NCBI GenBank assembly: GCA_030018355.1
Contig: JASEFN010000003.1
Coordinates: 83,939 to 147,938 of the forward strand
Direction: 5' to 3'
Length of the DNA: 64,000 nucleotides
Source: Caldisericia bacterium
GTDB taxonomy: Bacteria > Caldisericota > Caldisericia > B22-G15
Positions 7,300 to 61,407 of this stretch are shown piece by piece (within the stretch, counting starts at the first letter, position 1; every line of letters begins with the position of its first letter). The notes beneath the pieces are model-generated. The model worked only from the letters and a program-made list of their open reading frames with translations. It had not been told where the DNA came from and searched no databases. The position numbers were made by a program, and so were the translations under genes.

Positions 7300-7300
7300 G

Positions 7301-7333
7301 ATGTTAAAATCGTGTCTGACACTATTGTAACAT
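7301..7333. repeat. Palindromic repeat copy C, in tandem with copy B.
   Basis: ATGTTAAAATCGTGTCTGACACTATTGTAACAT. Confidence 0.75.
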
Positions 7334-7334
7334 G

Positions 7335-8141: not shown

Positions 8142-8157
8142 TTTTATTATAACAAAA

Positions 8158-10742: not shown

Positions 10743-10767
10743 AAATTTCTCCTTTTGCCTGGTCTTC

Positions 10768-10920
10768 CCTTTGTTCACAGGTTACCCTGTGTTTTTGAGG
10801 AAGACCTCAAAGGACGGCAACATCCTTGAGGGCATCCGCCGAATGGTTCGATTTTACCCCTTTTAAATAAGGGGAACCCTCTTCCTCGTCACCCAGATTT
10901 TTATATCTGGGCCAGGCGCT
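10768..10920 (-). ncRNA. glmS ribozyme: glmS ribozyme (GlcN6P-dependent self-cleaving riboswitch).
   Basis: Minus-strand RNA reads ...A|GCGCCUGGCCCAGAU..AUCUGGGUGACGAGGAAGAGGGUUCC...AUCGAACCAUUCGGCGGAUGCCCUC...GUGAACAAAGGGAAGACC. This matches the conserved glmS ribozyme core seen in Bacillus: AGCGCC cleavage site, UGACGAGGA, UCGAA..UUCGGCGGAUGCC, GAACAAAG.GAA. Confidence 0.85.
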
Positions 10921-33388: not shown

Positions 33389-34711
33389 GTGCTGATGAGG
33401 AAAAGAGTAATAATAATGGGAGCAGCAGGCAGAGATTTCCACAATTTTAATACATTCTTTAAAGATAATGAAGAGTATGAAGTTATTGCTTTTACAGCAA
33501 CACAAATTCCAAATATTGAAAATAGAAAATATCCTTCCTCTCTTGCAGGAAAACTATATCCGAATGGAATTCCAATTTATCCAGAAGAGGAACTACCAGA
33601 ATTAATTAAAAAATTTAATGTCGATTATGTTGTTTTTTCCTACTCAGATGTATCTCATGAATATGTTATGCACAGAGCATCAATTGCTTTAGCAAGTGGT
33701 GCAAATTTTTTGCTATTAGGACCAAAACATACTCAAATTGAGAGTAAAAAGAAAGTTATTTCAATTTGTGCAGTGAGAACTGGAAGTGGAAAAAGTCAAA
33801 CAACAAGAAGAGTTGTTAGTATAGTAAAAGAAATGGGTTTAAAACCTGTTGTTATAAGACATCCTATGCCATATGGGAACCTTGAAAGACAAAGAGTACA
33901 GAGATTTGAAACTATTGAAGATTTAGAAAAAGAAAATTGCACAATTGAAGAAAGGGAGGAATATGAACCCCATATAACAAGAGGTGTTGTTGTTTATGCT
34001 GGAGTAGATTATGAGGCTATTTTAAGAAGAGCAGAAGAAGAAGGAGATATAATTATTTGGGATGGTGGAAATAATGATTTTCCATTTTATAAATCTGATT
34101 TAAAAATTGTTGTTGCAGATCCATTAAGATTAGGTCATGAAATAACATATCATCCAGGAGAAGTGAATTTTCTTTCTGCAGATGTTATTGTAATTAATAA
34201 AGTTGATACTTCTCCATTTGAAAATGTTCAGATTTTAAGAAATAGAATTTATGAATTAAATCCTAAGGCTAAAGTAGTTGAAGCAGCATCTCCTATTTTT
34301 ATTGAAAATTATGAGTTAATTAAAGGAAAAAGAGTTCTTGTTGTTGAAGATGGTCCAACACTTACTCATGGTAATATGTCTTATGGTGCAGGGTTTATTG
34401 CTGCTAAAAAATTTGGTGCTAAAGAGATTGTTGATCCAAGACCATATATAAAAGGCTCAATAAAAGAAGCATTCATTAAATACCCACAAATTACTCAAAT
34501 ACTTCCTGCATTAGGTTATGGAGATGAACAACTTAAGGAACTCGAAGAGGTAATAAATTCTATACCAGCAGATCTTGTTGTCGTTGCTACTCCAATTAAT
34601 CTTGCAAGAGTTATAAAAATGAACAAAGAAAGTGTAAGAGTATTATATGAACTACAAGAAATTGGAAAACCAACACTCAAAGAGATTATTGAAGAAAAAT
34701 TTAGGAAATAA
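33389..34711 (+). CDS. P-loop NTPase-domain protein, possibly cyclic 2,3-diphosphoglycerate synthetase-like.
   Basis: Walker A TGSGKSQTT, an NKVD (G4-like) motif, and about 440 aa. Family assignment is from memory and uncertain. Confidence 0.35.
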   Translation: MLMRKRVIIMGAAGRDFHNFNTFFKDNEEYEVIAFTATQIPNIENRKYPSSLAGKLYPNGIPIYPEEELPELIKKFNVDYVVFSYSDVSHEYVMHRASIALASGANFLLLGPKHTQIESKKKVISICAVRTGSGKSQTTRRVVSIVKEMGLKPVVIRHPMPYGNLERQRVQRFETIEDLEKENCTIEEREEYEPHITRGVVVYAGVDYEAILRRAEEEGDIIIWDGGNNDFPFYKSDLKIVVADPLRLGHEITYHPGEVNFLSADVIVINKVDTSPFENVQILRNRIYELNPKAKVVEAASPIFIENYELIKGKRVLVVEDGPTLTHGNMSYGAGFIAAKKFGAKEIVDPRPYIKGSIKEAFIKYPQITQILPALGYGDEQLKELEEVINSIPADLVVVATPINLARVIKMNKESVRVLYELQEIGKPTLKEIIEEKFRK

Positions 34712-35368
34712 ATGATAATTTTTCTATTTTTCTTAATTTTCTTTTTACCAATAATTCTTTTTCTTTTCCTCTTTCCTTTAGGATATTTATTTTATGGTTT
34801 ATTAAATATTTTAACTATCCCTCTTCAAATTATCGAAATAGCAATCAATAAAAACTTAAGGAAAAATCATGCTTTAGAGCATGCAACAATTAATGTTATT
34901 GAAGAAGAGATGAACAAAAGAGGTATTCTTTCAGGTTATGCAAGAGAGAATGGCTTCTATGTTTTTGGAAGAATCGATCCAGAAATTTTGCTTAAAGCGA
35001 GTGAAATTGGAAGAGAAAAACTTATTTTAGGTGAAACTCATTATGCAATACATGAGAGATGTGGAACAAGTATTGGTGTTGCATCATTTTTGACAATTAT
35101 ATTTTTTCTTTTACTTATAATATTAACATCTTCATTTAACATATTCCTTTTACTTATTGCAATTATTTTAGGTCAAATTTTAGGGCCTCCTCTTGGTAAA
35201 TTAACTCAAAAATATTTCACCACTGATCCAGATGTTAGTGATATTAAAATAGTTAGTGTGGAGTATAATCCAACAAATATTTATGGTCCTTTTGGTATAC
35301 TTTATCCAAGTATGCCTTCTTCCTTCTTTATAAGAACAGAAAGAATAAAAACTTTTAGAGTTTTATGA
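34712..35368 (+). CDS. Hypothetical membrane protein.
   Basis: N- and C-terminal TM helices. Overlaps the downstream gene start. Confidence 0.4.
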   Translation: MIIFLFFLIFFLPIILFLFLFPLGYLFYGLLNILTIPLQIIEIAINKNLRKNHALEHATINVIEEEMNKRGILSGYARENGFYVFGRIDPEILLKASEIGREKLILGETHYAIHERCGTSIGVASFLTIIFFLLLIILTSSFNIFLLLIAIILGQILGPPLGKLTQKYFTTDPDVSDIKIVSVEYNPTNIYGPFGILYPSMPSSFFIRTERIKTFRVL

Positions 35369-36225
35369 AAACTTATTTTTCTCTTTTAAGAGTAAAACAT
35401 TGGATAAAAAATCTTTTTGTCTTTGCTCCTATAATTTTTTCTAAAAATTTATTCAATTTAGAGTTATTTAATAAAACTTTAATAACTTTTTTTCTTCTCT
35501 CCCTACTTACCAGTGGGCTATATATTTTAAATGATATTTTTGATCTTGATAGTGACTTGGAACATCCTGAGAAAAGAAATAGACCACTTCCAAGTGGTAA
35601 AGTTAATAAAAATTTTGCCCTAACTCTATCAATAATTTTAATAACATTGCCAATAACTCTCTCTCTTTTTATTGATCATGCTTTAACAATTATATTTTTT
35701 ATTTATTTAATTTTAAATTTCTTATACTCTTTTTTAATTAAGAGATTAGTAATAATTGATGTATTTATAATTGCAATTAACTTTATTTTAAGAATTTTTT
35801 CTGGTTCTGTGGTAACAAAAATTACAGTATCAAATTGGTTAATTTTATGCACACTTTTTTTATCTCTTTTTTTAGGTTTTGCAAAGAGAAGATTTGAAAT
35901 TGTTCTTTTAGGAGAGAATGCACATAAACATAGAGAAGTCCTGTCCTCTTATTCAGTCGAACTTCTTGATAAATTAATTGTTATTTTATCAACTGCAACA
36001 ATTCTTTCTTATTCACTTTATTCTGTTTCAACTGAAACAAAAGAAAAGTTTGGAGAAGGTTTTATTTTTACAATTCCTATAGTTCTTTATGGAATTTTGA
36101 GATATTTTTATTTAATCTATGAAAAAAAAGAGGGAGAGCCAATAAAACTTGTAACAGAAGATTTGCCACTAATTTTAACAATTTTGATCTGGATTATTTT
36201 TTCAATTTTCATTATCTATAAATAA
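35365..36225 (+). CDS. UbiA-family prenyltransferase, decaprenyl-phosphate phosphoribosyltransferase-like.
   Basis: NDIFDLDSDLEHPEKRNRPLPSG fits the UbiA NDxxDxxxD...RPL motif. Multi-TM. Confidence 0.7.
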   Translation: MKTYFSLLRVKHWIKNLFVFAPIIFSKNLFNLELFNKTLITFFLLSLLTSGLYILNDIFDLDSDLEHPEKRNRPLPSGKVNKNFALTLSIILITLPITLSLFIDHALTIIFFIYLILNFLYSFLIKRLVIIDVFIIAINFILRIFSGSVVTKITVSNWLILCTLFLSLFLGFAKRRFEIVLLGENAHKHREVLSSYSVELLDKLIVILSTATILSYSLYSVSTETKEKFGEGFIFTIPIVLYGILRYFYLIYEKKEGEPIKLVTEDLPLILTILIWIIFSIFIIYK

Positions 36226-36276: not shown

Positions 36277-36780
36277 TTGATAAGAGATTTTAAAGATTTT
36301 AAACCTCAAATTGGAAAAAATTCTTGGATAAGCGAAACTGCAATAATAATTGGTAATGTTAAAATAGGTGATAATGTGGGTATTTGGTTTGGTGCTGTTT
36401 TAAGAGGAGATGTTGCACCAATTGAAATTGGAAATAATACAAATATACAAGATAATGCTGTTATTCATTCTGAAGTTGGTTATCCTACAAAAATTGGTAA
36501 TGGAGTAACAATAGGTCATAATTCTATTATTCATGGATGTGAAATTGGTGATGATACATTAGTTGGAATGGGTGCAATTATTCTAAATGGTGCAAAAATA
36601 GGAAAAAATTGCATAATTGGTGCTGGTTCTGTTATTACGGAAGGAAAGGTTATAGAAGATAATTCTCTCGTTTTGGGTGTTCCTGGTAAAGTTGTTAGAA
36701 AAGTTACAAATGAAGAGATAAAAAGAATAAAAGAAAATGCTCTATCTTACATTGCTCTTAAAGGAGAGTATGAAAAGTAA
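36277..36780 (+). CDS. Gamma-carbonic-anhydrase-family hexapeptide-repeat protein (TTG start).
   Basis: Left-handed beta-helix repeats and His residues positioned as in gamma-CA/PaaY. Confidence 0.7.
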   Translation: MIRDFKDFKPQIGKNSWISETAIIIGNVKIGDNVGIWFGAVLRGDVAPIEIGNNTNIQDNAVIHSEVGYPTKIGNGVTIGHNSIIHGCEIGDDTLVGMGAIILNGAKIGKNCIIGAGSVITEGKVIEDNSLVLGVPGKVVRKVTNEEIKRIKENALSYIALKGEYEK

Positions 36781-36812
36781 AGGACTCTCAGATGAGAGTC
36801 CTTTTTTATTTT
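36781..36812 (+). terminator. Rho-independent terminator.
   Basis: AGGACTCTCA-GA-TGAGAGTCCT followed by TTTTTTATTTTT. Confidence 0.75.
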
Positions 36813-36822
36813 TGGATATAAT

Positions 36823-38541
36823 ATGGGACTAAAAGAGAAAATTGAAGTTGCAAAAGAAGAAAGAGAAGGGGATTTAATTCTTAAGGGAGGGAAAATTGTA
36901 AATGTTTTTGATAACTCTGTTGAAGAGGGAGATATTATAATTTATGAGGGTGAAATAGTAGGAGTAGGTAAATATTCAAAAGCAAAAGAGATATATAATA
37001 TTCAAGGTTATTATGTATCTTTTGGTTTTTTTGATAGTCATATTCACATTGAAAGCACATCTTTAACACCTCAAGAATTTGCAAAAGCAGTTGTTCCAAA
37101 AGGTACAAGTGTTGTTGTTGCTGATCCACATGAAATTGCAAATGTAGCGGGAATTAGGGGTTTAAAATATATGCTTTCTTCTTCAGAAAATTTGCCAATT
37201 GATATTTATTTTATGCTTCCATCATGTGTTCCATCTTCTCCATTTGAAAATTCAGGTTCAAGATTAACAGTTGAACACCTTTATCCATTTTTATCTCATC
37301 CTAAAGTTTTAGGTCTTGGTGAAATGATGAATTATCCTGGTGTTTTAAATGGAGATAATGAAGTTTTAAGGAAATTAGAATATTTTAAAGATAAAATAAT
37401 TGATGGACATTCACCTTTTCTTCTTGGTAATAATCTTAATGGTTATCTTGCCGCAGGGGTAAGTTCGGATCATGAATGTACAAATTTAGTTGAAGCAAGA
37501 GAAAAATTAAAAAAGGGGATGTGGATAATGATAAGAGAGGGTAGTGTTGCAAAAGATCTGGATGCTCTTTATCCTCTTATAAATCAAAACACTTATCCAA
37601 GAATTTTGTTATGTAGTGATGATAAACACCCAGGAGATTTGTTAAAAGAGGGACATATAAATGGAATTTTGAAAAAATTGGTAAAAAAAGGAATAGATCC
37701 TATAGTTGCTATAAGACTTGCGACACTAAATCCAGCAATTTACTTTGGTTTAAAAAAATTTGGTGCTATTGCGCCTAACTTTTTTGCAAATATTGTTGTT
37801 CTTGATGATCTTATTAATTTTGAACCAAAACTCGTTTTTTATAGAGGAAATCTTGTTGCAAAAGATGGGGTTCCTATGTTTTCATATGAGAGAACAAAAT
37901 CTGAAGGAGGAGTTAAAAACACTGTTAATATTAAAACATTAACATATGAAAAAATTAGTGTAAAAGCCTTAGGTGATAAGATAAATGTAATAGGTGTAAA
38001 TAAAAATTCATTGATAACTGAAAGATTTTTTGTTAAACCAAAAATTGAAAATGGTTTTGTTGTACCAGATATATCTCGAGACATTTTAAAGATAGTTGTT
38101 GTTGAAAGACACAAAGCAACTGGTAATGTTGGGGTTGGTTTTATTAAAGGTTTTAAATTAAAAGAAGGAGCAATTGCATCTACTATTGCTCATGATCATC
38201 ATAATATAATCTCTGTTGGAACTAATGATAAAGATATTCTACTTTCAATATCTATTCTTGAATCTTATGGAGGAGGTATATCAATTGCAAAAAATGGAAA
38301 AATTTTACATATTCTACCTCTTCCATATGGAGGTCTCATGTGTGATAGAAGTGCAAAAGAGGTAGATGAGGAATATCAAAAACTTTTATTTATAACAAGA
38401 AAACTTGGATGTACTCTTGATGACCCATTTATGTCACTTTCTTTTATGGCTCTTCCTGTAATTCCTCATTTAAAGATAACTGATTTAGGTCTTGTTGATA
38501 CAGATAATTTTAAAATTATCTCTTTATTTGAAAAGGGGTGA
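36823..38541 (+). CDS. ade: Adenine deaminase.
   Basis: 572 aa with the GFFDSHIHIESTSLTP metal-binding motif of the amidohydrolase-superfamily adenine deaminase. Confidence 0.85.
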   Translation: MGLKEKIEVAKEEREGDLILKGGKIVNVFDNSVEEGDIIIYEGEIVGVGKYSKAKEIYNIQGYYVSFGFFDSHIHIESTSLTPQEFAKAVVPKGTSVVVADPHEIANVAGIRGLKYMLSSSENLPIDIYFMLPSCVPSSPFENSGSRLTVEHLYPFLSHPKVLGLGEMMNYPGVLNGDNEVLRKLEYFKDKIIDGHSPFLLGNNLNGYLAAGVSSDHECTNLVEAREKLKKGMWIMIREGSVAKDLDALYPLINQNTYPRILLCSDDKHPGDLLKEGHINGILKKLVKKGIDPIVAIRLATLNPAIYFGLKKFGAIAPNFFANIVVLDDLINFEPKLVFYRGNLVAKDGVPMFSYERTKSEGGVKNTVNIKTLTYEKISVKALGDKINVIGVNKNSLITERFFVKPKIENGFVVPDISRDILKIVVVERHKATGNVGVGFIKGFKLKEGAIASTIAHDHHNIISVGTNDKDILLSISILESYGGGISIAKNGKILHILPLPYGGLMCDRSAKEVDEEYQKLLFITRKLGCTLDDPFMSLSFMALPVIPHLKITDLGLVDTDNFKIISLFEKG

Positions 38542-39911
38542 GTTTAATGAAATTAGTGGTAGGTGGGATGGTTTATTATAATGGAAAAGTTGAGAATTTA
38601 GATATTTTAATTGAAAAAGAAAAAATTATTGGTATAGGAAAATTTTCAACAGAAAATAAAGAAATAATTGACGCAACTGGTTTCTTAATTCTTCCTGGAG
38701 GCATTGATTCTCATGTTCATTTCAACGATCCTGGTTTTACGCATAGGGAAGATTTTGAGTCTGGAAGTAAAGCATCGGTTTCATCTGGAATAACAACAGT
38801 TATAGATATGCCATGTACTTCCATTCCTCAAGTAAAGGATAAGGAATCACTTTATAAAAAACTTGATGAGATTAAAAATAAATCCTATGTTGATTATGCA
38901 CTTTATGGTGGGGTTACAGGTGATATGATAAGGGATAAAAAATTTAAAGATATAGAAAATTTATATTCAGAAGGTGTTGTAGGTTTTAAAATTTATTCTT
39001 ACAGTTCAGCACCTTATTTTGAACATTTATCTTATGGAGAGATGTATGAACTTTTTAAATATTTTAAAAAAGAAGATATTCTTTTTACTTTACATGCAGA
39101 AGATTATTCAATAACAAAACATTATATGGAATTAGCACAAAAAAAAGAAGATTTGAGTGAAGGTGAAAAATGGATTCTTGCAAGACCATATCTTGCAGAA
39201 GTTATCTCTATTCTAATTTCATCAAGATTAATTAAAGATACAAATTTAAGGTTAAATATAACACATATATCAACAAGTGAAGGAGTAAAACTTGTTAAAG
39301 AGAGAAAAGATGAGGGTGTTAAGATTTTTTGTGAAACAACCCCACATCATCTCCTATTAACTCAAGATGATTTAATAAAAAATCCAAAACTTGTTAAAAC
39401 ATCTCCGCCTGTGAGATGTTATGAAAATAGAGAACTCATGTGGAAATTTTTAAAAGAAGGTTTTATAGATGGAGTTTGTTCAGACCACTTTTCTGGCGAA
39501 TGGGAAAATGAAAAAAATAAAGAAAATATTTTTGAAGTAGCAGCAGGAATTTCAGGAATTGATACAATTTTTCCTCTTATTTTTTCAGAAGGAGTTATGA
39601 AAGGAAGAATCTCTTTAAGTAAATTTGTTGAAGTTATGAGTGAAAATCCAGCAAAAATTTTTAAACTATATCCAAGAAAAGGAAAAATTGAAATTGGTTT
39701 TGATGCAGATTTAGTTTTTATTGATTTAAATAGAGTTTGGAAAATCGAAGGTAAGAATTTCTATTCAAAAGGAAAATATACTCCTTTTGAGAATTGGAAA
39801 ATCTATGGAAAAGTTGTTAAAACAATGTTAAGAGGAGAGATTGTTTTTGATGAAAATAAAGGCTTTCTTGTTGAAAAGGGATTTGGTAGATTCTTAAGAA
39901 GAATTGATTGA
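38538..39911 (+). CDS. Cyclic amidohydrolase (allantoinase / dihydroorotase / dihydropyrimidinase family).
   Basis: LPGGIDSHVHFNDPG...ITTVIDMP, 457 aa. Confidence 0.7.
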   Translation: MSLMKLVVGGMVYYNGKVENLDILIEKEKIIGIGKFSTENKEIIDATGFLILPGGIDSHVHFNDPGFTHREDFESGSKASVSSGITTVIDMPCTSIPQVKDKESLYKKLDEIKNKSYVDYALYGGVTGDMIRDKKFKDIENLYSEGVVGFKIYSYSSAPYFEHLSYGEMYELFKYFKKEDILFTLHAEDYSITKHYMELAQKKEDLSEGEKWILARPYLAEVISILISSRLIKDTNLRLNITHISTSEGVKLVKERKDEGVKIFCETTPHHLLLTQDDLIKNPKLVKTSPPVRCYENRELMWKFLKEGFIDGVCSDHFSGEWENEKNKENIFEVAAGISGIDTIFPLIFSEGVMKGRISLSKFVEVMSENPAKIFKLYPRKGKIEIGFDADLVFIDLNRVWKIEGKNFYSKGKYTPFENWKIYGKVVKTMLRGEIVFDENKGFLVEKGFGRFLRRID

Positions 39912-40608
39912 GGAGGGTTATATGAGAAGTTTAATAACATATTTAGGTCATTCATCATTTTCAATAAAATATTCTCAAGGAGAAATATTAATTGATCCCT
40001 TTTTTGAAATTGAAAATGATTTTATTGAAAAAACTAAAATAACATACATCTTTTTGACTCATGGACATCAAGACCATATAGGAAAAACTCTTGAACTATA
40101 TAAAAAGTTTAATCTAAAAATTGCAGGTGCTTATGAATTGATGTTGTTTTTAAATAGTAAAGGAGTAAGGGAAGAAGATTTAATTTCAATTAATTTTGGA
40201 GGATTTATAGAATTTCCATTTGGGAAAGTCAAGATGGTTTATGCACTTCACTCATCATCTACACTTAATGATGGAAAAATTGTTTATACTGGAAATCCAT
40301 GTGGTTATATTTTTAAATTTGAAGATAGAACAATCTATCACATGGGAGATACAGGTCTATCTTATGAATTTAAACTCATTGGAGAGTTAGAAAAGATAAA
40401 TGTTTTGTTAATTCCAATAGGAGGAGTTTTTACAATGGATATCGATGACGCAATAAATGCAGTTAAGATGATTAACAGTGAATATGTAATACCAATGCAC
40501 TATAATACATTTGATGAAATTAAGTGTGATCCAATATTATTTAAGAGAAGAGTTGAAAGTGAGACGCTCTCTAAATGTATAATCTTAAAGAAAGGTGAAA
40601 GTTTCTAA
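39904..40608 (+). CDS. MBL-fold metal-dependent hydrolase (UPF0173-like).
   Basis: ITYLGHSSFSIK...IFLTHGHQDHIG. Confidence 0.65.
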   Translation: MIEEGYMRSLITYLGHSSFSIKYSQGEILIDPFFEIENDFIEKTKITYIFLTHGHQDHIGKTLELYKKFNLKIAGAYELMLFLNSKGVREEDLISINFGGFIEFPFGKVKMVYALHSSSTLNDGKIVYTGNPCGYIFKFEDRTIYHMGDTGLSYEFKLIGELEKINVLLIPIGGVFTMDIDDAINAVKMINSEYVIPMHYNTFDEIKCDPILFKRRVESETLSKCIILKKGESF

Positions 40609-40613
40609 AAAAA

Positions 40614-41492
40614 GTGATCAATAAAATAATTGTTCCTTCAGAATGGGAAGAGTTAAAAGAGAAATTCTTATCTAAAGGAAAAAAATTAATAGTTTTAGGG
40701 GGTTCTGATTCTGGAAAATCAACTTTTATTCTTTATTTAGCAAATTCTATTGCATCAACTGGTAAAAAAGTTGGCATTTTGGATCTTGATATAGGTCAAT
40801 CCAATATTGGTCCTCCTGGAACAATTGGATATGGAGTACTTGAGAAAGAGATCGAGAGTTTAGATTCACTCCAACCTAAAAAGATGGTTTTTATTGGTGC
40901 AGTATCACCTAAGGGAAATCTTCTTCAAATTGTTGTTGGTGCAAGAAAATTACTTGATTCAATGGAAATGGAAAATTTAGATTATATTTTAATTGATACA
41001 ACTGGTTTAGTAGATGGATTAATTGCTGAAGTTTTAAAACATAACAAAATAGAATGTTTAAATCCAGATTTCATCGTTTTATTTCAAAAAGAAAATGAAA
41101 GAGAAAATTTGATAAAGCCATTTTTATATGATGGAAAAGAGATAGTTAGATTAAAAATTAATGAGATTGTAAGAGAAAGATCAAGAATAGAAAGAATTGA
41201 ATATAGAAATAGAAAATTTAGTGAATATTTTAAAAATTCAAAAAGAGTAGAAATTTTCTTTAAAGAGCATAACATTTTAGGTTATAATATAAATAAATTT
41301 GATCCAATTAACAATTCAATAGTTGGTCTTCTTGATAAAGAAAGATTTTTACTTTATCTTGGTATTTTAGAAAAATTCAACAGAGAAAAAATGTCAATTA
41401 TAATTGACTCACCTATAGGAGAAGAGAAAGGAATAAAATATATAAAATTCTCTAATCTAATTTACAATATAAAAACATTTGCCCCCTCTTAA
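40614..41492 (+). CDS. Clp1/Grc3-like polynucleotide 5'-kinase P-loop protein (GTG start).
   Basis: LIVLGGSDSGKSTFILYLAN plus ILDLDIGQSNIGPPGTIG closely parallel human Clp1 VVGPTDVGKST...VELDVGQGSVSIPGTMG (Walker A and the Clp1_P lid). Confidence 0.6.
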   Translation: MINKIIVPSEWEELKEKFLSKGKKLIVLGGSDSGKSTFILYLANSIASTGKKVGILDLDIGQSNIGPPGTIGYGVLEKEIESLDSLQPKKMVFIGAVSPKGNLLQIVVGARKLLDSMEMENLDYILIDTTGLVDGLIAEVLKHNKIECLNPDFIVLFQKENERENLIKPFLYDGKEIVRLKINEIVRERSRIERIEYRNRKFSEYFKNSKRVEIFFKEHNILGYNINKFDPINNSIVGLLDKERFLLYLGILEKFNREKMSIIIDSPIGEEKGIKYIKFSNLIYNIKTFAPS

Positions 41493-41535: not shown

Positions 41536-41895
41536 TTAACTTTCAGTCTTTTTAATCAAATTTTTAATTGCTTCAATTGCCTGTTCAGTTGTCATATTTC
41601 TAATGTCAACTCCATAGTGCTTTGTTTTATCAAAACCTGCTTTTTCAAAGGCGTCTCTAAACATTTTAATTTGCATTTTTGGATCACAACCTGCAATGTA
41701 AAGTTTATCAATTTTTCCATTAGTTGATAAAAGAGTTGTTAAGTAATTATCACCATCATCTGCACAAAGTTGAGGATGGATAGAAACAAAATCAACAAGT
41801 TCTTCTCTTCTTAAAGTGTTTAAAACTTCAAAAATGTTCATTTGGTGAAAAGATGGACATGTTCCTTGACAAACACATAAAATTAATCCTTTCAT
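41536..41895 (-). CDS. MvhD/FlpD-like hydrogenase iron-sulfur-subunit-domain protein.
   Basis: N-terminal LILCVCQGTCPS cysteine cluster and C-terminal IAGCDP. The family call is weak. Confidence 0.35.
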   Translation of the reverse strand: MKGLILCVCQGTCPSFHQMNIFEVLNTLRREELVDFVSIHPQLCADDGDNYLTTLLSTNGKIDKLYIAGCDPKMQIKMFRDAFEKAGFDKTKHYGVDIRNMTTEQAIEAIKNLIKKTES

Positions 41896-50234: not shown

Positions 50235-52169
50235 ATGAATGAAAAAGATAAACCACGAAGTAGTAAGAACGGAAAGGTAACAAAAAAAGAACTTTTTGGA
50301 AAAATAGAGAGTTTAGATGAGTATATAAAAAGTCATACAAGCAAAGTTAAAATGTCTCCTTTTCTTTTATCAAGTGATATTGAAGAAAAGGAGATAAGAG
50401 ATCTAATTAAAAAAGAGATTGATTATTTAATAGAAATTTTAAAACCAAAAGAAAATGATAGAATTCTTGATCTTATATCAAGCCACGGAGAATACTCATT
50501 AGAACTTGCAAGAAGAGGATTTATAAATGTAGAAGGGCTTGATAGATCAAGTAACTTAATTCAAAAATCAAAACTTAGAGCAAAAAAAGAGAACTTACCT
50601 GTTAAGTTTAGAGAAGGGACTCCAAGAAAACTTTTTTATCCACCTAATAGTTTTGATGTTGTTTTGCTAATTGGTAATGTCTTTGGTTTTTTTGAGACAC
50701 CACTTGATGCTTTTAATGTTTTAAAAGAGATCTTTAGAGTGTTAAAAAAGGGTGGAAAAATATTTATAGATATAATAGATAGTGAATATGAAAAGAAAAA
50801 CATTGTTCCATATTACTGGCAGTGGCTGGATAAAAATCATTATGTTTTAAGAGAAAATAAATTATCTTTAAATGAAGATAGTTTAATAATTAGAGAGATT
50901 GTGAGTCATATTCAAAAAGGAGTAATAAAAGATAGTTTCTTTTCATTGAGATTATATACAAAAGATGAAATTCTAAATCTACTTAAAAGAGCAGGTTTTT
51001 CTGATATTCAAATATTTGATCACTCAATTGATATAAATATTCCAATATCAAATTTCCAAATTGGAGAAAAACATATCTCTTTTGTTGCTACAGTATATAA
51101 AGAAATAAAAGAAGAAGTAAAAGTTAAAAAAGTTTTAAGAAATGTTTGTGTTATATTGGGTGATCCAAAGAAAAGTGATCCACTTAAACCAAATCACATT
51201 TTTGATGAGGATGATTTAAGAGCAATAGAAAAGTTAAAAGAAACTTTAAAAACATTTAAAAATTATAAATTCATCTATTTAGATAATCATGATCATCTTG
51301 CTGAAGAACTAATGGGGTTAAAAGGTAAAGTGGATTATGTTTTAAATTTATGTGATGAAGGTTATTTTAATGATCCTACAAAAGAGATGCATATTCCTGC
51401 AATTCTAGATGTTTTAAATATTCCATATACTGGTGCAACTCCACAATCACTTGCACATGCATATGATAAATCTCTTGTAAGAGGAATTGCAAGAGAAATG
51501 GGTATTCCTGTCCCAGATGCTTTTCTTGTAAAGCCAGGTGAAAATGTTTATGAATTACCAATAAATTTTCCTATTATAGTTAAACCTAATTTTGGGGATT
51601 CAAGTTTTGGTATAACTCAAAAAAATGTCTGTTTTGATTATGAAAGTTTAATAAAAGTTATAAGAGATCTAAGAGATCTTTTTGGTTATGAAAAACCAAT
51701 ACTTATTGAAGAATTTTTAACAGGTAAGGAATTAAGTTTAGGAATAATTGGTAATCCACCAAGATATCCATTTAAACTTTTACCTCTTGCTGAACTTGAT
51801 TACTCATCTTTACCTGAAGATTTGCCTAAGATATGTGGTTATGAAGCAAAGTGGTTACCTAATTCTCCTTATGGGAAAATAAAATTTATTAAAGCAACAG
51901 TTTCTGAAGAAGTTGAAAGAGATTTAATTGATTGGAGTATTAGACTCTTTGAAAGATTAGAATGCAGAGATTATGCAAGATTTGATTTTAGATTAAATTC
52001 AAGTGGATTTCCAAAACTTCTAGAGGTAAATCCAAATCCAGGATGGCACTATGATGGTTTTTTAGCAGAGATTGCAAGAATTCAAAATATTGATTATAAA
52101 ACACTTCTTGAATTAATATTAAAATCAACTGAAATTAGATTGGGATTAATACCAGCAGAAGAGTTTTAA
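50235..52169 (+). CDS. Fusion protein: N-terminal class I SAM-dependent methyltransferase and C-terminal ATP-grasp ligase (D-Ala-D-Ala ligase-like).
   Basis: The N-terminal half has an MTase fold (ILDLISSHGEYSLELARRGF...VVLLIGNVFGFF). The C-terminal half has DHLAEELMGLKGKVDYVLNL (pre-ATP-grasp) and IVKPNFGDSSFGIT...EEFLTGKELSLGIIGN (ATP-grasp). Confidence 0.65.
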   Translation: MNEKDKPRSSKNGKVTKKELFGKIESLDEYIKSHTSKVKMSPFLLSSDIEEKEIRDLIKKEIDYLIEILKPKENDRILDLISSHGEYSLELARRGFINVEGLDRSSNLIQKSKLRAKKENLPVKFREGTPRKLFYPPNSFDVVLLIGNVFGFFETPLDAFNVLKEIFRVLKKGGKIFIDIIDSEYEKKNIVPYYWQWLDKNHYVLRENKLSLNEDSLIIREIVSHIQKGVIKDSFFSLRLYTKDEILNLLKRAGFSDIQIFDHSIDINIPISNFQIGEKHISFVATVYKEIKEEVKVKKVLRNVCVILGDPKKSDPLKPNHIFDEDDLRAIEKLKETLKTFKNYKFIYLDNHDHLAEELMGLKGKVDYVLNLCDEGYFNDPTKEMHIPAILDVLNIPYTGATPQSLAHAYDKSLVRGIAREMGIPVPDAFLVKPGENVYELPINFPIIVKPNFGDSSFGITQKNVCFDYESLIKVIRDLRDLFGYEKPILIEEFLTGKELSLGIIGNPPRYPFKLLPLAELDYSSLPEDLPKICGYEAKWLPNSPYGKIKFIKATVSEEVERDLIDWSIRLFERLECRDYARFDFRLNSSGFPKLLEVNPNPGWHYDGFLAEIARIQNIDYKTLLELILKSTEIRLGLIPAEEF

Positions 52170-54503: not shown

Positions 54504-56810
54504 CCCTTTGAGTGATGTTTCAAAATTTTTTCTGGTATATTTATAACCCCATTCTTTACAAGATAAAAAATAAAAATATAAACTCTTTCTCCATTGCTTT
54601 TCTTTGCTTTCTTTACTTTTAATAACCCTACAATATTCCAAATGATAAACACCCTCCATACTATACACTTTCCAATAATTCACTTTTAACAGATATATGA
54701 CTTTCGTTCACACATTTTACATTACTAAAAACTTGTTCTATACAAATATTAGCTACTTAACAAATTTTTTTGTATTTTTGAGCCTTCTCTTTTGCTTTAA
54801 GCCTTTTAGAAGATTTAACTTTTTGCCATACAATGTCATTTGTATGCAAATTGGTTTAAAGCCAAGTTTCTCCAACTTTTCAAGTAATATACCTGACTGC
54901 TCATTTAAAAGTTTACCTTCATTATTGTGCTGATTTAAGTTTTACACCGAATATCCACAACCTGTTATCTTGTCGATAAACTAAAACAATCGGTTTGATA
55001 TTAACTTTTATCTCTTTCCCTTGTTTACTCCAAAAATAATATGTGATGTATTATACTATAAGCTTTCTATTAACTAAAACATAAGTATATAAGTATTTTT
55101 TATTTTTCTAAACCTATCCCTTTTTCTGTTAGATATTGGAATAGTCCATGTGGTCTTGCTTCTAAAAATAGTTGAATACAAAAAAATTATTCTTAATGAA
55201 GGAAATTTTAATTTCCTAATAGTTCCTTATCTCTACCAAAAAAGTTTTCTATAACTTGCTTGATGTGGTATTTTAAGAAACAAGAGAGTAATTATGTATT
55301 ATAGGAAGTTTTTTCTGCAGAATTCCTCTATAAGCTTAAATATTTGTTGTGCTTTTAAAGTTGAAAAATATGTATTTTGAATTTTTTTTATAATTTTTCA
55401 GAGTTATTATAATAACCAATATTTTGAAATTTTGTATAGATGCTATTTTCGAAGGTCAAGGATATTTTTGAAACACTTAAGTTTTAAGATTTACGCTGAG
55501 AAAGCCAATCCTTTTGGTCTGTGATGAAAGGTGGTATATATAATGAAAGTCTAATAATAAAGATCAAGTTTGGGTCTTAGATAAACTTCTAAAAACGGAC
55601 CACTTGTAGGTAATTGCCTATGAAACGGAAAATTTTATTGAAAGAGGAAAAGTTCATCTCTTAAGATGTTAGGGAAGTTACTTTATACATTAATAATATG
55701 CTCTTTTAATTTCAGTTAATAAAATTTTAAACATTATATAACCTCTTCTATTTTTTAAAAAAGATCAATTTCTTTGTTTTATTTGAATATTTTTTATAAA
55801 TGTTCAAGATTTGTAATTCTAAATATATAAAATCAGAATCGCTTTTAATTTTTGAAACACATATAAGACTTTCAAACTTAAAAATATCTATAATATTTTA
55901 TATATTTCTTTTAAGTTCGTTTTTTTATATTTGCTATTAAGATAACAGGATAACCTAATTTACGCTTTAACTATTTCTCCTTTCAAAGAACTGATTTTTC
56001 CTTTAAAGTAATTACCTTTAATATTTTTAACAATCAATGTAATTAATAAAAAATATTTGTCAATATTCTACGTAGTAATGTACTCACCTTTGAAAAAAGT
56101 AGAGAAAGTTTATGTTTTGCTTTTTTTAGAATTTTCTTTCAACTATTAAATAATTTTCCCATTTTTTATAACAAAATATACTTCTATCCTATTTCTAGTT
56201 CTTTTTCTGAAATAGTATTTATATAATTTGATGTTATTCTGTGAGAGTATTTGATTAAATATTATTTCACCTTTATCAGCTTCTAGAAAATAAAGTAAAC
56301 TTGCATTTTTTAAAAATAAAAAACTAGCCAATAAAAGTAATTAAAATTTTTTATTTTGTATTCTTTGAGTTCCTTTATCTGTTATATTGTAAGATTGTCA
56401 ATCTCTGTTTTTAATAAAAATTACTCTGTTATTACAAAAATTTGTAAACTTTACATTTCATATAGTTTATATAAAACTTGCACATTTCAAATCTTCACAG
56501 ATACTATTCAAACTTCTCGTAAAATAAAACTAAAAATTAACAAGATTCAAATACTACAATAAAATAAATTTTTTATTAAAAATAAAATTTCTAAATATTA
56601 ACACATACTTCAATTTTTACATCAATTTACCTGATAAAATGTCTTAATAAGGATAAATCATGATTTACCTATATAATTTTTCAATCATAAATAAATTATT
56701 AAAAAATTTTTGTAAAAATCTCTTTTCGTTAATTTTGGAAATGTAATAAGAAATATAAATCCATTTTGAAAAACTTAACAAACTACTGTACTATTGACAC
56801 ATTTTTACCC

Positions 56811-57671
56811 CTAAATCTTAAATATTCCATATCCTAACGATGTTTTCGCTCCAATACCAAACTTTTCTAATGCTTCCTTTAATAACACTTCTGACTTTTG
56901 GAGTAAAGAATTGTCCTGTGAAATTAAATAGAATCGAAAAGTTGTTTTCTCAACAGTCAAAAATTCTACAGGTTTTGGATTTTGCCAATCTGCCGGAGGT
57001 TGCTTTCCAGAATAATAATCAGGATAATGGGGGTTCATTATATCAATCTTCAAATTTATATCACTTACCGGATAAGCATCTATAAAATATACCTTCCCTT
57101 GATGCTTTTGAGTGCCGAAGATTTTAATCAACTCTCCAAATTTTATATTACCAATTTCCAAATCCAACTCGTTTCCTTTTTCAAGATCACTCGAAATTTG
57201 CTCCACAGCATCTTCAAAACTTTTATTATCTTTATTCATCTTCTGTTCTGCAAACTTCAACACCGCCCAATGCTTTGTTACTCCTTTGACCGCACTTCCC
57301 GGAATATACGGAATCCCATAAATATGATGCAAAGTCATCGATGTTTCCTGGGGATGTACTCCTCCAAGCCCAATTATAAGATGCCAAGGACATATGCTTT
57401 GAAAATTCTTAACATTAAAACCATTATTTTTTAAAAGATTAATCAAATTTTCTCTTCTCTTCTGAATGTTTTCTAAAAAATTTCTTTCCCATTTGAATTT
57501 CTCAATTTCCTTATTAATCACTATCCTTTCAGGCAAGATCTCCCCAAGAACAATTGGTGAGTTAAATAGAAAATAAAAATTATTATCAGGTCCAATGCTT
57601 TGAGCTGAAAGTATACTAAAGGTATCTCGAGGAAAATACTTATTTTTTGATACATGAAACCTAATACTCAT
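56811..57671 (-). CDS. cmr6: Type III-B CRISPR RAMP protein Cmr6.
   Basis: GLGGVHPQETSMTLHHIYGIPYIPGSAVKG, the Cmr6 G-rich loop / PYIPGSS(L/V)KG signature. Confidence 0.85.
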   Translation of the reverse strand: MSIRFHVSKNKYFPRDTFSILSAQSIGPDNNFYFLFNSPIVLGEILPERIVINKEIEKFKWERNFLENIQKRRENLINLLKNNGFNVKNFQSICPWHLIIGLGGVHPQETSMTLHHIYGIPYIPGSAVKGVTKHWAVLKFAEQKMNKDNKSFEDAVEQISSDLEKGNELDLEIGNIKFGELIKIFGTQKHQGKVYFIDAYPVSDINLKIDIMNPHYPDYYSGKQPPADWQNPKPVEFLTVEKTTFRFYLISQDNSLLQKSEVLLKEALEKFGIGAKTSLGYGIFKI

Positions 57672-58096
57672 TCTTCACTCTCCTCCTCTGTTTCAATCAA
57701 ACCCTCTGCAAACCTCTTCACCCAATTTAAAAATGCAAGTATCTCCTCTGTGACATATCGATAATTTTGAGAATCAAGCGAAATAACCCATTCTACTAAC
57801 TCAATGTTATCTGGCATCTTTATTCTTGCTGTTGAATCACTTCTAAGATAATCCATCATTTGCGAATATAAAAGTTCATAAGCATTTCCATTTTTTGCTT
57901 TCGACTTAACAAATGCAAGGGTTTGCCCAAGTCCATTGGAAAGAATCATCTGAGGAATTTTTCTTGAGTAAGCACGGTAATTCTTGAGTAATTCTTTATT
58001 AGAAGAATTTTCATCAACCACTTCCTTTACACACCTATACGCAAACTCTGCTCTCCCCTTTTCAAGTTTTGTAATTAAACTCTCTCTATCAGGCAT
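57668..58096 (-). CDS. cmr5: Type III-B small subunit Cmr5.
   Basis: 142 aa and alpha-helical, positioned between cmr4 and cmr6. Confidence 0.7.
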   Translation of the reverse strand: MPDRESLITKLEKGRAEFAYRCVKEVVDENSSNKELLKNYRAYSRKIPQMILSNGLGQTLAFVKSKAKNGNAYELLYSQMMDYLRSDSTARIKMPDNIELVEWVISLDSQNYRYVTEEILAFLNWVKRFAEGLIETEEESEE

Positions 58097-58118
58097 AACT
58101 AACCTCCTTTGTTAATTT

Positions 58119-59105
58119 TCAAAGGATTTTTAACCTTACAAAACCCTTTCCAATTGTTTGATTGCCCCCTATCTGAACTATCTCTGGAAGCCCATCTTTA
58201 AAAAACTTAGCAACAAGTTCTGCCTCTTCCTGTGGAGTAACAGATTTAAATATCCCTTTTTGCTCATCACTTTTTACTTTTGGCTCTGTAAACATCACGA
58301 GAGAATATAAGATTGTATCTTGAGGCAAATATTCTTCTGTCCATAGCGCCCCTGACGCAACAGTGCCAGTTTTATCGTCAATTCTCGTCCTCGTAATTAC
58401 CTCAGTAGAGGTCTTTACAAATTGCTTAAAATCATCATCACTTAAAATAACAAGATCACTTTTTAACTTCTCCCTCCAATAGTTATAAGCATTATCACTA
58501 GGGAAAATTCGATTTGCGAACCATTCAGCAATTCCAGAGGTTATATCATTTTCGTTTACTTCAAAAGTGAATTCTTCAAGTATAATTTTTGACTCAATTG
58601 CAAGATTTGATTGTCTTGGTGTAGTGTTTTGAAGTGTGTAAAAGTTTCCAAAATTGCTAGAGTTTATACCAGCCATCTTGATTTCCTTACTAAATCTTTC
58701 AAGAACCATCGGACAAGTTATCCAAGCAAAAATACCCTTCAACGATTTAACAGGAAATAAAAGAATTCTCGCATCCGTAAAAGTAATAGCGCTTGCATGC
58801 TCATCACTATCTTCTGGTCCAAAAACAAGTGATAAATAGTCTTTGTTAAGTTCTGTTTCAGCATTGTCTTTAATGTATTTTATTTTGTCTTTGGGTCTAA
58901 TTTTTTTAGCATTTAATTCAATTTCTTTATTCGCAATTCCAAACGCCTCTTTTATACAGCCCTTTAGTCCTGAAGCTTCAATCTTGGGAAAATCCGTATG
59001 CCTTTCCCTTTGAATGGGAAGATCCACAAGCCCCAATTCACTCCCACTTCCAGCATGAACAGGAGTTTCTGCAATTATGAACAATGACTGTACTTTTTTA
59101 AACAT
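58119..59105 (-). CDS. cmr4: Type III-B backbone RAMP Cmr4.
   Basis: N-terminal FIIAETPVHAGSGSELGLVDLPIQRE, the Cmr4 (Cas7-group) signature with the catalytic Asp region. Confidence 0.85.
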   Translation of the reverse strand: MFKKVQSLFIIAETPVHAGSGSELGLVDLPIQRERHTDFPKIEASGLKGCIKEAFGIANKEIELNAKKIRPKDKIKYIKDNAETELNKDYLSLVFGPEDSDEHASAITFTDARILLFPVKSLKGIFAWITCPMVLERFSKEIKMAGINSSNFGNFYTLQNTTPRQSNLAIESKIILEEFTFEVNENDITSGIAEWFANRIFPSDNAYNYWREKLKSDLVILSDDDFKQFVKTSTEVITRTRIDDKTGTVASGALWTEEYLPQDTILYSLVMFTEPKVKSDEQKGIFKSVTPQEEAELVAKFFKDGLPEIVQIGGNQTIGKGFVRLKIL

Positions 59106-60306
59106 GCCATCCCTCCTTTTGTATTTTATAAACTTTGTAGTTTTCTAAATCTTTTATCTTCGACAAGTTATTTTTAAAAGTTTCAACATACTCACTTTCA
59201 ACATTATGCACATCACTTCCTATGCTAATCGCTCCAGCATAAATATCATACTCCATGACACCATACCGAGTTTTTCTTTCCTTTACTTTATATAAAATCC
59301 TTACCTGTAAATTATTCTCCTTATGTTTAAAACATTTAAAGTCTTGTAAATCCACACCTTCCAATCTATGGTCTAAATCAGGATCCTGTAGGTTTTGCTC
59401 TATTCTTCGCTTAAGCTCTAATAAAGATTTTTCCGCTATGTTCTTAAAATTTTGGTCCTTGCCAATATACTCTTTAAATAATTTAGATACATAAAAAACT
59501 CTAAACCCTCGCTTATACTTTTCCCATAAAACTATCCCCAAGTTGTTTAGAGAATATAAGTTTTCAACCCTTTCCACTAGACTTAAAATATCTGCATAGT
59601 CTTCCTCATTAATACCCTTCAGTTCACTAACCCCATCCTTTTCCAATTTAGCAAAAAACTCTTCATATTCTTCGAATATCTCCCATTTAATATCTAATGG
59701 AATGTAAGGTATCTTTATTAAAGCATCAGTTTTTTCAAATATATAATAAACAGGACATTTATTCACCTGAGCAAGGATCGTAAGATACGGAATGGTCGCC
59801 TTGTATCCCCCAGTGATGTTAATAATCACATTATCCCAGTATTCATCCGCAATCCTATAAATCTCATTTATCAATTCACTCATACCAACATTAAACTCTT
59901 CTCTATCCTGAACCTGCAAACACTTAATAAATCTTGTGTAAATTTTTTTACTATCAAACCCTAAATCCTGAAGAATTTCTTCTATTAACTGACTCGCAAG
60001 CTTACTTAAAATTGTATCAGAATACAGAAGATAAACTTCAAAATCATCATCCCTTAACTCCTCTTTTAACTTTAAAAGGCTTTTCACTTCCGCCGATAGA
60101 GTCACTTTATTCTCATCTTTTCTTGAGTCAATCCATTCTTTAATTGCATCTCTAAGAGATTGAATCCTCCTCTTTTCTGAATCAAATTCCTCTGCCTTCT
60201 TTTCCTGTAGATCTTCAAAGTAACCTCTAGAAGTGTTATTTCTCTTTTCTTCCTCAAAATAATTCTCAAATATCGATGTCCCAACCATCGTAATTACCTT
60301 CTTCAT
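59098..60306 (-). CDS. CARF-domain protein embedded in the cmr operon, in the Csx1 positional slot, with an unrecognised C-terminal effector domain.
   Basis: The N-terminal beta-strand/loop VITMVGTSIFEN and the NITGGYKATIPYL motif fit the CARF family's [DN]-[IL]-T-[HG]-G-[FY]-[RK]. The C-terminal ~200 aa lacks any R-x4-6-H HEPN motif. Confidence 0.6.
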   Translation of the reverse strand: MKKVITMVGTSIFENYFEEEKRNNTSRGYFEDLQEKKAEEFDSEKRRIQSLRDAIKEWIDSRKDENKVTLSAEVKSLLKLKEELRDDDFEVYLLYSDTILSKLASQLIEEILQDLGFDSKKIYTRFIKCLQVQDREEFNVGMSELINEIYRIADEYWDNVIINITGGYKATIPYLTILAQVNKCPVYYIFEKTDALIKIPYIPLDIKWEIFEEYEEFFAKLEKDGVSELKGINEEDYADILSLVERVENLYSLNNLGIVLWEKYKRGFRVFYVSKLFKEYIGKDQNFKNIAEKSLLELKRRIEQNLQDPDLDHRLEGVDLQDFKCFKHKENNLQVRILYKVKERKTRYGVMEYDIYAGAISIGSDVHNVESEYVETFKNNLSKIKDLENYKVYKIQKEGWHV

Positions 60307-61406: not shown

Positions 61407-61407
61407 A

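Follow-up and report, generated by a model that had tools for sequence, protein, structure and literature searches.

Polynucleotide kinases of the Clp1 family have been described from eukaryotes (human CLP1; the Caenorhabditis elegans protein of PDB entries 4OHV-4OI2), from archaea (Pyrococcus) and from scattered bacteria. Saito et al. catalogued the bacterial branch in 2019, finding Clp1 in 14 of 1,543 complete bacterial genomes (0.9%), spread over several phyla, with short N-termini and without the archaeal C-terminal domain (PMC6777427). One of these proteins, Ts-Clp1 from Thermus scotoductus, is a thermostable, ATP-dependent kinase that prefers single-stranded RNA over single-stranded DNA (PMC6777427), and a follow-up study in 2023 reported activity on both single- and double-stranded RNA while noting that the function of prokaryotic Clp1 needs study (PMC10598085). 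Here we describe a Clp1-family gene from a 64,000-nucleotide stretch of a Caldisericia bacterium (assembly GCA_030018355.1, contig JASEFN010000003.1, positions 83,939 to 147,938 of the forward strand), hereafter called the window. It is the last of four tightly packed genes and follows those for an adenine deaminase (ade), a cyclic amidohydrolase and a metallo-beta-lactamase (MBL)-fold hydrolase. We read the locus as two older units, one composed of a gamma-carbonic-anhydrase-family gene (gCA), ade and the amidohydrolase gene and the other of the MBL and Clp1 genes, which came to stand head-to-tail in one sublineage, the last gene encoding a predicted active Clp1 5'-hydroxyl (5'-OH) kinase. 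We put the probability of this reading at roughly 0.7.

The closest described relative is Ts-Clp1. Both proteins are single-gene bacterial Clp1s from thermophile-type lineages; their N-termini are short, and their CLP1_P kinase domains carry Walker A, Walker B and lid motifs. The Caldisericia protein, however, keeps both lid arginines, one of which is a lysine in Ts-Clp1, and neither the Caldisericota nor a neighbourhood of UPF0173 (the family of the MBL-fold protein), ade and amidohydrolase genes is described in the main text of the Ts-Clp1 paper. With the eukaryotic and archaeal proteins it shares the kinase and C-terminal folds (Foldseek E = 1e-20, template modelling (TM) score 0.77) and the catalytic motifs, but it lacks the N-terminal beta-sandwich, has a leucine in the clasp and is only about 18% identical. 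Moreover, the Caldisericia protein has no TSEN or cleavage-factor partners, and the sole tRNA of the window is intron-free. The Las1-Grc3 and LAS1L-NOL9 complexes of pre-rRNA processing offer a third comparison, since Grc3 and NOL9 are Clp1-family kinases that appear among the structural matches and the complexes embody the concept of a nuclease joined to a kinase. Las1, though, is a HEPN nuclease. The Caldisericia locus has no such gene; its adjoining gene encodes a UPF0173 hydrolase that is not known to act as a nuclease, and the pairing is limited to one phylum.

By every sequence and model comparison that was run, the last gene is a genuine Clp1-family kinase. A search with the Pfam model CLP1_P (PF16575), the check proposed with the original prediction, covered the whole profile (positions 1-188 of 188) at 145.3 bits (E = 2.5e-42, cutoff 26.6). 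Sequence matches in the PDB were to human Clp1, NOL9, C. elegans Clp1 and Grc3, with an alignment that extends through the lid, so the likeness to Clp1 claimed for the P-loop and lid is borne out and is not confined to Walker A. The four motifs, as defined in PMC6777427, are readily located. Walker A reads G29-GSDS-G34-K35-S36, with G29, G34 and K35 invariant among 19 homologs, and Walker B reads D59-I-G-Q62, with D59, G61 and Q62 invariant in the same set. The RxxxxR lid, R189-SRIE-R194, aligns to that of human Clp1, and R194 is invariant together with a further arginine, R198. In the clasp, T129-T-G131-L132, the TxG core is kept and leucine takes the place of tryptophan. That position holds leucine in 53 of 90 prokaryotic loci, phenylalanine in 19, methionine in 12 and tryptophan in 4; judged from this alignment, leucine here is typical of prokaryotic Clp1 and probably marks no fault in the Caldisericia gene.

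The predicted fold agrees with the profile. An AlphaFold2 model built on the alignment of the 19 homologs has a mean per-residue confidence (pLDDT) of 90.9 and a predicted TM score (pTM) of 0.89, and places a P-loop kinase domain at residues ~22-208 and a beta-rich C-terminal domain at ~210-289; there is no N-terminal domain of the eukaryotic kind, in line with what is published for bacterial Clp1. When the model was compared with the PDB by Foldseek, the best 23 matches were all Clp1, Grc3 or NOL9 (E down to 1.6e-20; query-normalised TM 0.77 over ~300 columns), a match that therefore takes in the C-terminal domain as well. It is thus most improbable that the gene encodes some other P-loop nucleoside triphosphatase (NTPase) of the SIMIBI class, such as a MinD/ParA/Mrp-like ATPase or a MeaB-like GTPase, that merely resembles Clp1. 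Such a protein might be suspected from the missing clasp tryptophan and from weak secondary matches to CbiA, MipZ, MeaB, ParA and MrpORP models of Pfam and NCBIfam at 16-29 bits, the first three of them a few bits over their own Pfam cutoffs. Yet the best of these rival models reaches only 29 bits against 145 for the whole CLP1_P profile, the NCBIfam matches to these families all fall far under cutoff, the Clp1-specific DxGQ form of Walker B, the clasp core and the lid are all present, and the next fold class in the structural search, the signal recognition particle (SRP) GTPases, scores a TM of ~0.3.

The two-unit reading comes from a comparison of gene order over 90 Clp1 loci, 13 from Caldisericota and 77 from elsewhere, in which the MBL, ade and amidohydrolase proteins of the window served as tblastn queries for related genes within 8 kb of Clp1. 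Such genes were confined to the 13 loci from Caldisericota, not one of the three lying near Clp1 in any of the 77 others, and a UPF0173 profile hidden Markov model confirmed that this family neighbours Clp1 only in Caldisericota. Three arrangements were seen within the phylum. Clade A, comprising the window, L001, L002 and L011 (Clp1 at least 79% identical), has the order gCA-ade-amidohydrolase-MBL-Clp1. Clade B (L003, L004 and L012-L014; Clp1 ~64% identical) has gCA-ade-amidohydrolase-Clp1, with a last gap of 5 nt and no MBL gene. Clade C (L005-L007, L015 and L016; Clp1 ~52% identical) carries, on one strand, the MBL gene, a S-adenosylmethionine (SAM) methyltransferase gene, Clp1, a gene for a helix-hairpin-helix (HhH) protein and one for a 251-aa protein, with gCA, ade and the amidohydrolase gene on the opposite strand and an oxidoreductase gene in between. 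Pairwise identities make clades A and B sisters, with C outside them.

The breakpoints of rearrangement fall between the two groups of genes and never between ade and the amidohydrolase gene, and gCA adjoins ade in all 11 Caldisericota loci that reach that far (L007 and L013 are truncated upstream). Because the breakpoints spare the ade-amidohydrolase pair, and because the position of a hairpin between gCA and ade is conserved (see below), the two groups are taken to be independent units. In the lineage leading to clades A and B the units would have been brought into the same orientation, after which clade B would have lost its MBL gene. The co-transcription with purine genes, which the original prediction had left unexplained, is best accounted for by such a lineage-specific juxtaposition, and the proposed check on co-occurrence, made here as linkage over the 90 loci, finds the MBL gene beside Clp1 only within Caldisericota and missing from one of its clades.

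What the first unit does can be judged in part from its proteins. The first gene had been called an adenine deaminase, and it matches TIGR01178 at 625.7 bits (cutoff 472.5), with the Pfam domains Amidohydro_1 and Adenine_deam_C (PF13382, 220 bits). The second, predicted to be a cyclic amidohydrolase, passes the dihydroorotase model TIGR00857 at 338.7 bits (cutoff 279.05), a broad, subfamily-domain model that does not fix the substrate, and scores 334.4 bits against allantoinase AllB (TIGR03178), under the cutoff of 357.85. Its database names are equally divided, NCBI giving "dihydroorotase family protein" and JGI "dihydropyrimidinase/allantoinase"; there are no further pyr genes nearby, and the nearest relatives outside the Caldisericota clade (41-44% identity) are mostly named AllB and in some cases dihydroorotase. 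The protein belongs, as far as its sequence tells, to the dihydroorotase/allantoinase/hydantoinase group, and its substrate is likely a purine ring or ureide.

Two of the relatives point in the same direction. The amidohydrolases of L091 (Caloramator) and L093 (a related genome), 41-43% identical to that of the window, are encoded in clusters with the formiminotransferase FTCD, an isochorismatase-family hydrolase, UbiX, UbiD, shell proteins of the BMC/EutN type and an adenine deaminase, the last ~5 kb 3' of the amidohydrolase gene. Clostridial purine fermentation, the Rabinowitz pathway, employs a xanthine or ring-opening amidohydrolase, an aminoimidazole-carboxylate decarboxylase and a formiminoglycine formiminotransferase, and by analogy the L091 and L093 clusters appear to be microcompartment-associated loci of anaerobic purine degradation. 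Since ade and the amidohydrolase gene are paired there, they can be seen as a purine-catabolic pair apart from Clp1, in which the deaminase would convert adenine to hypoxanthine and the allantoinase-like enzyme would open a purine-derived or ureide ring. A third relative, in L092 from another Caldiserica genome, lies among housekeeping genes without ade. Unlike the clostridial-type loci, with which it has both the amidohydrolase and adenine deaminase in common, the Caldisericia locus lacks genes for FTCD, a decarboxylase, xanthine dehydrogenase and a microcompartment, and any pathway here would therefore be partial or different.

These assignments bear on the simplest alternative, that all four genes serve one pathway scavenging nucleic acid for purines, with the MBL protein and Clp1 making degradable 5'-phosphate fragments and the deaminase and amidohydrolase processing the adenine. 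The genes are co-directional, separated by 5-10 nt and flanked by two hairpins, and in clade B Clp1 directly follows the amidohydrolase gene; Clp1 also stays within ~5 kb of the ade-amidohydrolase pair throughout the Caldisericota loci. In clade C, however, the two halves are divergent and split by the unrelated oxidoreductase gene, the linkage is absent both from the 77 other Clp1 loci and from the two purine-fermentation loci with amidohydrolase relatives, and the steps that would lead from RNA to adenine (exonuclease, nucleotidase, and nucleosidase or phosphorylase) are not encoded at the locus. Tight packing, moreover, is the norm in this genome. A single four-gene pathway is accordingly judged very unlikely.

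The MBL protein does not have the identity first proposed for it. It had been described as RNase Z/beta-CASP-like, but it belongs to UPF0173, matching the equivalog NF001911 (PRK00685) at 245.6 bits (cutoff 144) as well as Pfam Lactamase_B_3. In the PDB it matches TM_1162 (E = 5e-50, residues 11-233) and Igni18 (E = 2e-38), an alignment in which its HxHxDH metal motif reads HGHQDH. Scores against RNase Z (TIGR02651, 17 bits, cutoff 293) and RNase J (TIGR00649, 26 bits, cutoff 400) are far under cutoff, the sole PDB match to an RNase J covers a 40-residue motif (E = 4e-4), and at 228 aa the protein has neither an insertion domain nor an RNase Z exosite; an RNase Z or beta-CASP enzyme was thus rejected. 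TM_1162 (PDB 3X2X-3X30) and Igni18 (PDB 6HRG) resemble the Caldisericia protein in family, size and HxHxDH site, though for neither did we find adjacency to a Clp1 kinase reported in the literature. Igni18 is promiscuous in vitro, acting as phosphodiesterase, lactonase, lipase and more, with no established physiological role; its phosphodiesterase activity was seen with model substrates, and the authors of that study suspect that its ancestry is linked to RNA (PMC7846560).

The pairing of this protein with Clp1 had been taken to suggest a module for healing or processing RNA ends. In such a scheme the MBL phosphodiesterase or nuclease would cut RNA or open a 2',3'-cyclic phosphate and Clp1 would phosphorylate the 5'-OH, as in Las1-Grc3 or the healing half of Pnkp, and the purine genes would be mere neighbours. 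Several observations are in keeping with the scheme: the MBL gene lies directly 5' of Clp1 in clades A and C, between which Clp1 is 52% and the MBL protein 51% identical; the two genes stayed paired across an inversion relative to ade and the amidohydrolase gene; Igni18 has the activity and suspected ancestry noted above; the clade C pair sits with a SAM methyltransferase and an HhH protein; and generic MBL-fold genes occur 0.8-3.3 kb from Clp1 in six other loci of about four lineages. Yet those other MBL genes are of different subfamilies, not UPF0173, are not adjacent to Clp1 and are often on the opposite strand, and UPF0173 itself was found within 8 kb in none of the 77 loci outside Caldisericota. 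Clade B keeps Clp1 without an adjoining MBL gene, its amidohydrolase and Clp1 genes being 5 nt apart. UPF0173 proteins are widespread, stand alone and are not known to act on nucleic acids, and the neighbourhood holds no RNA ligase or 3'-phosphatase.

The methyltransferase of clade C brings to mind the Pnkp/Hen1 system, where a 5'-OH polynucleotide kinase likewise stands beside other enzymes, here with the methyltransferase gene between those of the MBL protein and Clp1. The Pnkp kinase, however, is of the T4-Pnk type and not of the Clp1 type, and scans with Pfam and NCBIfam profiles found no phosphatase, ligase or Hen1 domain at the Caldisericia locus. The clade C cassette (MBL-methyltransferase-Clp1-HhH-251 aa-AF_0692) was rejected as a Pnkp/Hen1-like repair system for want of support: its methyltransferase is a generic class I enzyme without a Hen1 signal, neither NCBIfam nor the PDB gave a match to the 251-aa and 326-aa proteins, and the extra genes of the cassette have no counterparts in the window. 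All told, an RNA-end healing module finds no comparative support: UPF0173 adjoins Clp1 only in Caldisericota, is missing in one clade and has no ligase, phosphatase or Hen1 for company. We regard a two-enzyme module with bystander purine genes as doubtful, and the same or slightly greater doubt attaches to the MBL and Clp1 proteins forming a functional unit. A further version, built by analogy with Las1-Grc3 or the healing half of Pnkp, in which the Caldisericota UPF0173 phosphodiesterase or nuclease and the Clp1 kinase would make up a minimal bacterial RNA-end processing pair, seems unlikely; were it true, it would provide the first physiological role for the widespread orphan family UPF0173 and the first cellular function for bacterial Clp1.

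The reading of two juxtaposed units is therefore preferred, but four points weigh against it. The MBL gene has stayed next to Clp1 across an inversion, in two clades that share only 52% identity in Clp1, and this is some evidence for more than chance. Clp1 lies within ~5 kb of ade and the amidohydrolase gene in 13 of 13 Caldisericota loci, and a loose functional tie between them is possible. The replacement of the clasp tryptophan by leucine may affect RNA binding, and a conserved terminator-like hairpin just before ade leaves the mode of expression of the four genes uncertain.

Kinase activity, substrate and cellular role are proposed here by analogy with characterised members of the family. 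The predicted short-form Clp1 would phosphorylate the 5'-OH of RNA, taking the gamma-phosphate from ATP, and DNA would be a poorer substrate. Going by the family, K35 and S36 of Walker A would bind the phosphates and Mg2+, D59 of Walker B would activate the 5'-OH of the RNA, and R189 and R194 of the lid would stabilise the transition state, while L132 stands where the clasp tryptophan would stack on the terminal base. This assignment of roles draws partly on PMC6777427 and partly on the structures of C. elegans Clp1. In the cell, the enzyme would probably turn the 5'-OH ends left on RNA by metal-independent RNases into 5'-phosphate ends suited to decay or ligation.

The layout of the locus is compact. 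The original prediction had placed four tightly packed, co-directional genes here, and the listing of open reading frames (ORFs) in the window has all four on the plus strand exactly where they had been placed (Table 1). It had also described overlapping or adjacent stops and starts; the close adjacency stands, whereas the two quoted overlaps arise because the first possible start codon was taken. The maximal amidohydrolase ORF starts at a GTG, but the likeliest start is the ATG at 38547, preceded by the Shine-Dalgarno (SD) sequence GGGGTGA, and the MBL gene, whose maximal ORF opens on a TTG, most likely starts at the ATG at 39922 behind a perfect SD sequence, GAGGAGG. GenBank concurs with the later starts in the lengths it gives to the two proteins (454 and 228 aa), and the true gaps are therefore +5, +10 and +5 nt. 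The cluster is already annotated there, with MDI6861148-50 upstream of MDI6861151.1 under names that agree with the profile assignments; gCA, upstream of them, scores 179 bits against NF050158, under that model's cutoff.

Spacing across the four genes remains very tight after this correction, but it is not distinctive. Junctions of 10 nt or less make up 22 of the 48 co-directional junctions in the window, where the median gap is 18 nt and the coding density ~91%, and the size of related contigs, 1.37-1.40 Mb, points to a small genome; packing of this kind is the norm in a compact genome. The four genes form the 3' tail of a co-directional run of ~21 genes (18449-41492). Co-transcription of the four is plausible from this layout, and would reflect compact-genome packing and not a shared pathway.

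Hairpins lie at either end of the four genes. The upstream one, an 11-bp stem followed by a run of T, shares bases with the gCA stop codon, and ~18 nt separate its end from the ade ATG. Its position, with stems that differ in sequence, is kept in six of the seven Caldisericota loci compared, from all three clades; L011, L001, L003, L006 and L005 share it with the window through compensating stems, and L012 is the exception. From its sequence it would be an intrinsic terminator or an attenuator. Because its position is kept and the ade start is so near, the hairpin suggests an attenuator or a processing or stability element rather than a simple operon boundary. The distance from the T-run to the ade ATG leaves no room for a canonical promoter; a TATAAT box (36817-36822) abuts the ATG and fits neither a leadered nor a leaderless start, and ade has no clear SD sequence in the window. 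Transcription probably enters the four genes by read-through from those upstream, as this arrangement would imply. Of the "two strong terminators" between which the operon was said to lie, the upstream hairpin is strong, while the downstream one is only moderate on the operon strand. The latter is stronger on the minus strand (-15.7 kcal/mol, z = -4.8) and is a probable bidirectional terminator, by its position, shared with a convergent HdrA-like gene.

Table 1. Features of the window and of compared loci; coordinates are those of the window unless a locus is named.
Feature	Coordinates	Strand	Basis or remark
gCA (gamma-carbonic-anhydrase-family, hexapeptide repeat)	36277..36780	+	Pfam Hexapep; GenBank MDI6861147.1
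Hairpin between gCA and ade, 11-bp stem then T-run	36779..36804	+	-18.3 kcal/mol, z = -4.6
Maximal ORF, first gene (572 aa)	36823-38541	+	
Maximal ORF, second gene	38538-39911	+	
Maximal ORF, third gene	39904-40608	+	
Maximal ORF, fourth gene (292 aa)	40614-41492	+	
Adenine deaminase, ade (572 aa)	36823..38541	+	TIGR01178, Pfam; GenBank MDI6861148.1
Cyclic amidohydrolase (454 aa)	38547..39911	+	TIGR00857; SD; GenBank "dihydroorotase family protein"
UPF0173 MBL-fold hydrolase (228 aa)	39922..40608	+	NF001911; SD; PDB TM_1162
Short-form Clp1-family kinase (292 aa)	40614..41492	+	CLP1_P; GenBank MDI6861151.1 "Clp1/GlmU family protein [Caldisericia bacterium]"
Hairpin overlapping Clp1 stop codon	41481..41502	.	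plus strand -12.1 kcal/mol, z = -2.3
Convergent HdrA-like gene	41536-41895	-	
Trio of genes 5' of gCA	33389-36225	+	
c-di-GMP-II-GAG riboswitch	601-688	+	42.6 bits, gathering threshold 40
ORF (166 aa)	738-1238		downstream of the riboswitch
ORF (619 aa), presumably glmS	8919-10778		directly downstream of the glmS ribozyme
glmS ribozyme/riboswitch, full length	10751-10931	-	Rfam RF00234, 91 bits
Methyltransferase/ATP-grasp fusion (644 aa)	50235-52169	+	
AT-rich stretch beside cmr6	54504-56810		2.3 kb, GC ~26%
Type III-B CRISPR-Cas module	56811-63978	-	
Cas_APE2256/Csx1-like CARF protein	59098-60306		between cmr3 and cmr4
cas10/cmr2	61408-63978		
Methyltransferase remnant, L005	7790-8005		47% identity over 72 aa
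Probable purine degradation cluster, L091	5082-13416		
Probable purine degradation cluster, L093	5012-13416		
DUF72-Clp1, L008	7250-8930		
DUF72-Clp1, L028 and L029	~7190-8800		
DUF72-Clp1, L051			

Some of the Caldisericota loci show further peculiarities. L013 and L014 are two contigs of one metagenome-assembled genome (MAG; assembly JAAYUH01), each with ade-amidohydrolase-Clp1 and with Clp1 proteins 62% and 64% identical to that of the window; the double locus would reflect a duplication or a bin in which strains or species are mixed. In L005 a SAM methyltransferase gene survives only as a decayed remnant, set in the 211 bp between the MBL gene and Clp1, whereas L006, L007 and L016, its sister loci, have the gene intact. 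Upstream of gCA, in clades A and B alike, stands a trio of genes whose start and stop codons abut or overlap, encoding a 440-aa protein with a weak cobW-like match as its sole family hint, a DUF6391 protein and a UbiA-family protein like decaprenyl-phosphate phosphoribosyltransferase.

Elsewhere in the window lies a type III-B CRISPR-Cas module with cas10/cmr2, cmr3, cmr4, cmr5 and cmr6 and a Csx1-like protein. Such enzymes leave 5'-OH RNA ends, and the module was entertained as a linked source of them and set aside, lying 15 kb off on the opposite strand with unrelated genes between; no cas genes emerged from the neighbour clustering of other Clp1 loci. In the AT-rich stretch beside cmr6 no ORF reaches 110 aa, and a search there for a CRISPR array or another family of repeats gave none. 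The window also holds a glmS ribozyme, a c-di-GMP riboswitch upstream of a 166-aa ORF, and a fusion gene, encoding a class I SAM methyltransferase at the N-terminus and an ATP-grasp domain like that of D-Ala-D-Ala ligase at the C-terminus, which stands upstream of a gene for a TrmA-like tRNA (U5) methyltransferase.

Neighbours of Clp1 were also sought without regard to the Caldisericia genes, by all-against-all blastp clustering of ORFs within 4 kb of Clp1 in the 90 loci. No universal neighbour emerged, only lineage-limited clusters, and there was no cluster of RNA ligase, RtcB, Hen1 or phosphatase within that distance. In eight Armatimonadota-like loci (L026, L053, L057, L062, L066, L070, L072 and L079) genes for a PHP phosphoesterase and a 177-aa membrane-anchored protein lie divergently upstream, and an NTP_transf_5 nucleotidyltransferase gene lies ~400 nt downstream of Clp1; PHP and NTP_transf_5 enzymes around Clp1 would fit end-healing chemistry, although the block is lineage-limited. 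CobA forms another recurrent lineage-limited cluster, and MazG and a THEP1-type NTPase are neighbours in single loci, the latter following Clp1 in L008. DUF72 genes were near Clp1 in six loci, directly 5' of it in Brocadiia, Thermodesulfobacteriota and one Spirochaetota MAG, with start and stop codons that overlap or are 2 nt apart. Among the Clp1 pairings seen across phyla this is the tightest, and it may say more about function than UPF0173 does.

The original prediction also called Clp1 a rare find in bacteria, which is true but was published earlier (PMC6777427). A scan of one genome per GTDB species, made with an alignment of nine Clp1 sequences as query, gave at least 595 confirmed Clp1 loci; among the matches listed are Caldisericota, Armatimonadota, Vulcanimicrobiota, Brocadiia, Nitrospirota, Bacillota, Thermodesulfobacteriota, Poribacteria and several archaeal groups. 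HMMER, run exhaustively against the representatives of 1.84 billion clusters (50% identity), returned 2,325 matches at E <= 1e-3, 305 of them at E <= 1e-30. The family is thus of a rare yet known kind, less exotic than in 2019 now that metagenome-derived genomes are at hand, and the Caldisericia protein adds one lineage, the Caldisericota, outside the main text of the 2019 study, to a scattered and already annotated family.

For the cellular role of bacterial Clp1, a conserved partner would be a useful clue. The Caldisericia locus opens no new question in this regard, and the clue that it does give, the UPF0173 neighbour, is weak and restricted to one phylum. Better starting points for the function of Clp1 would be the DUF72 and PHP/NTP_transf_5 pairings, lineage-specific though they are.

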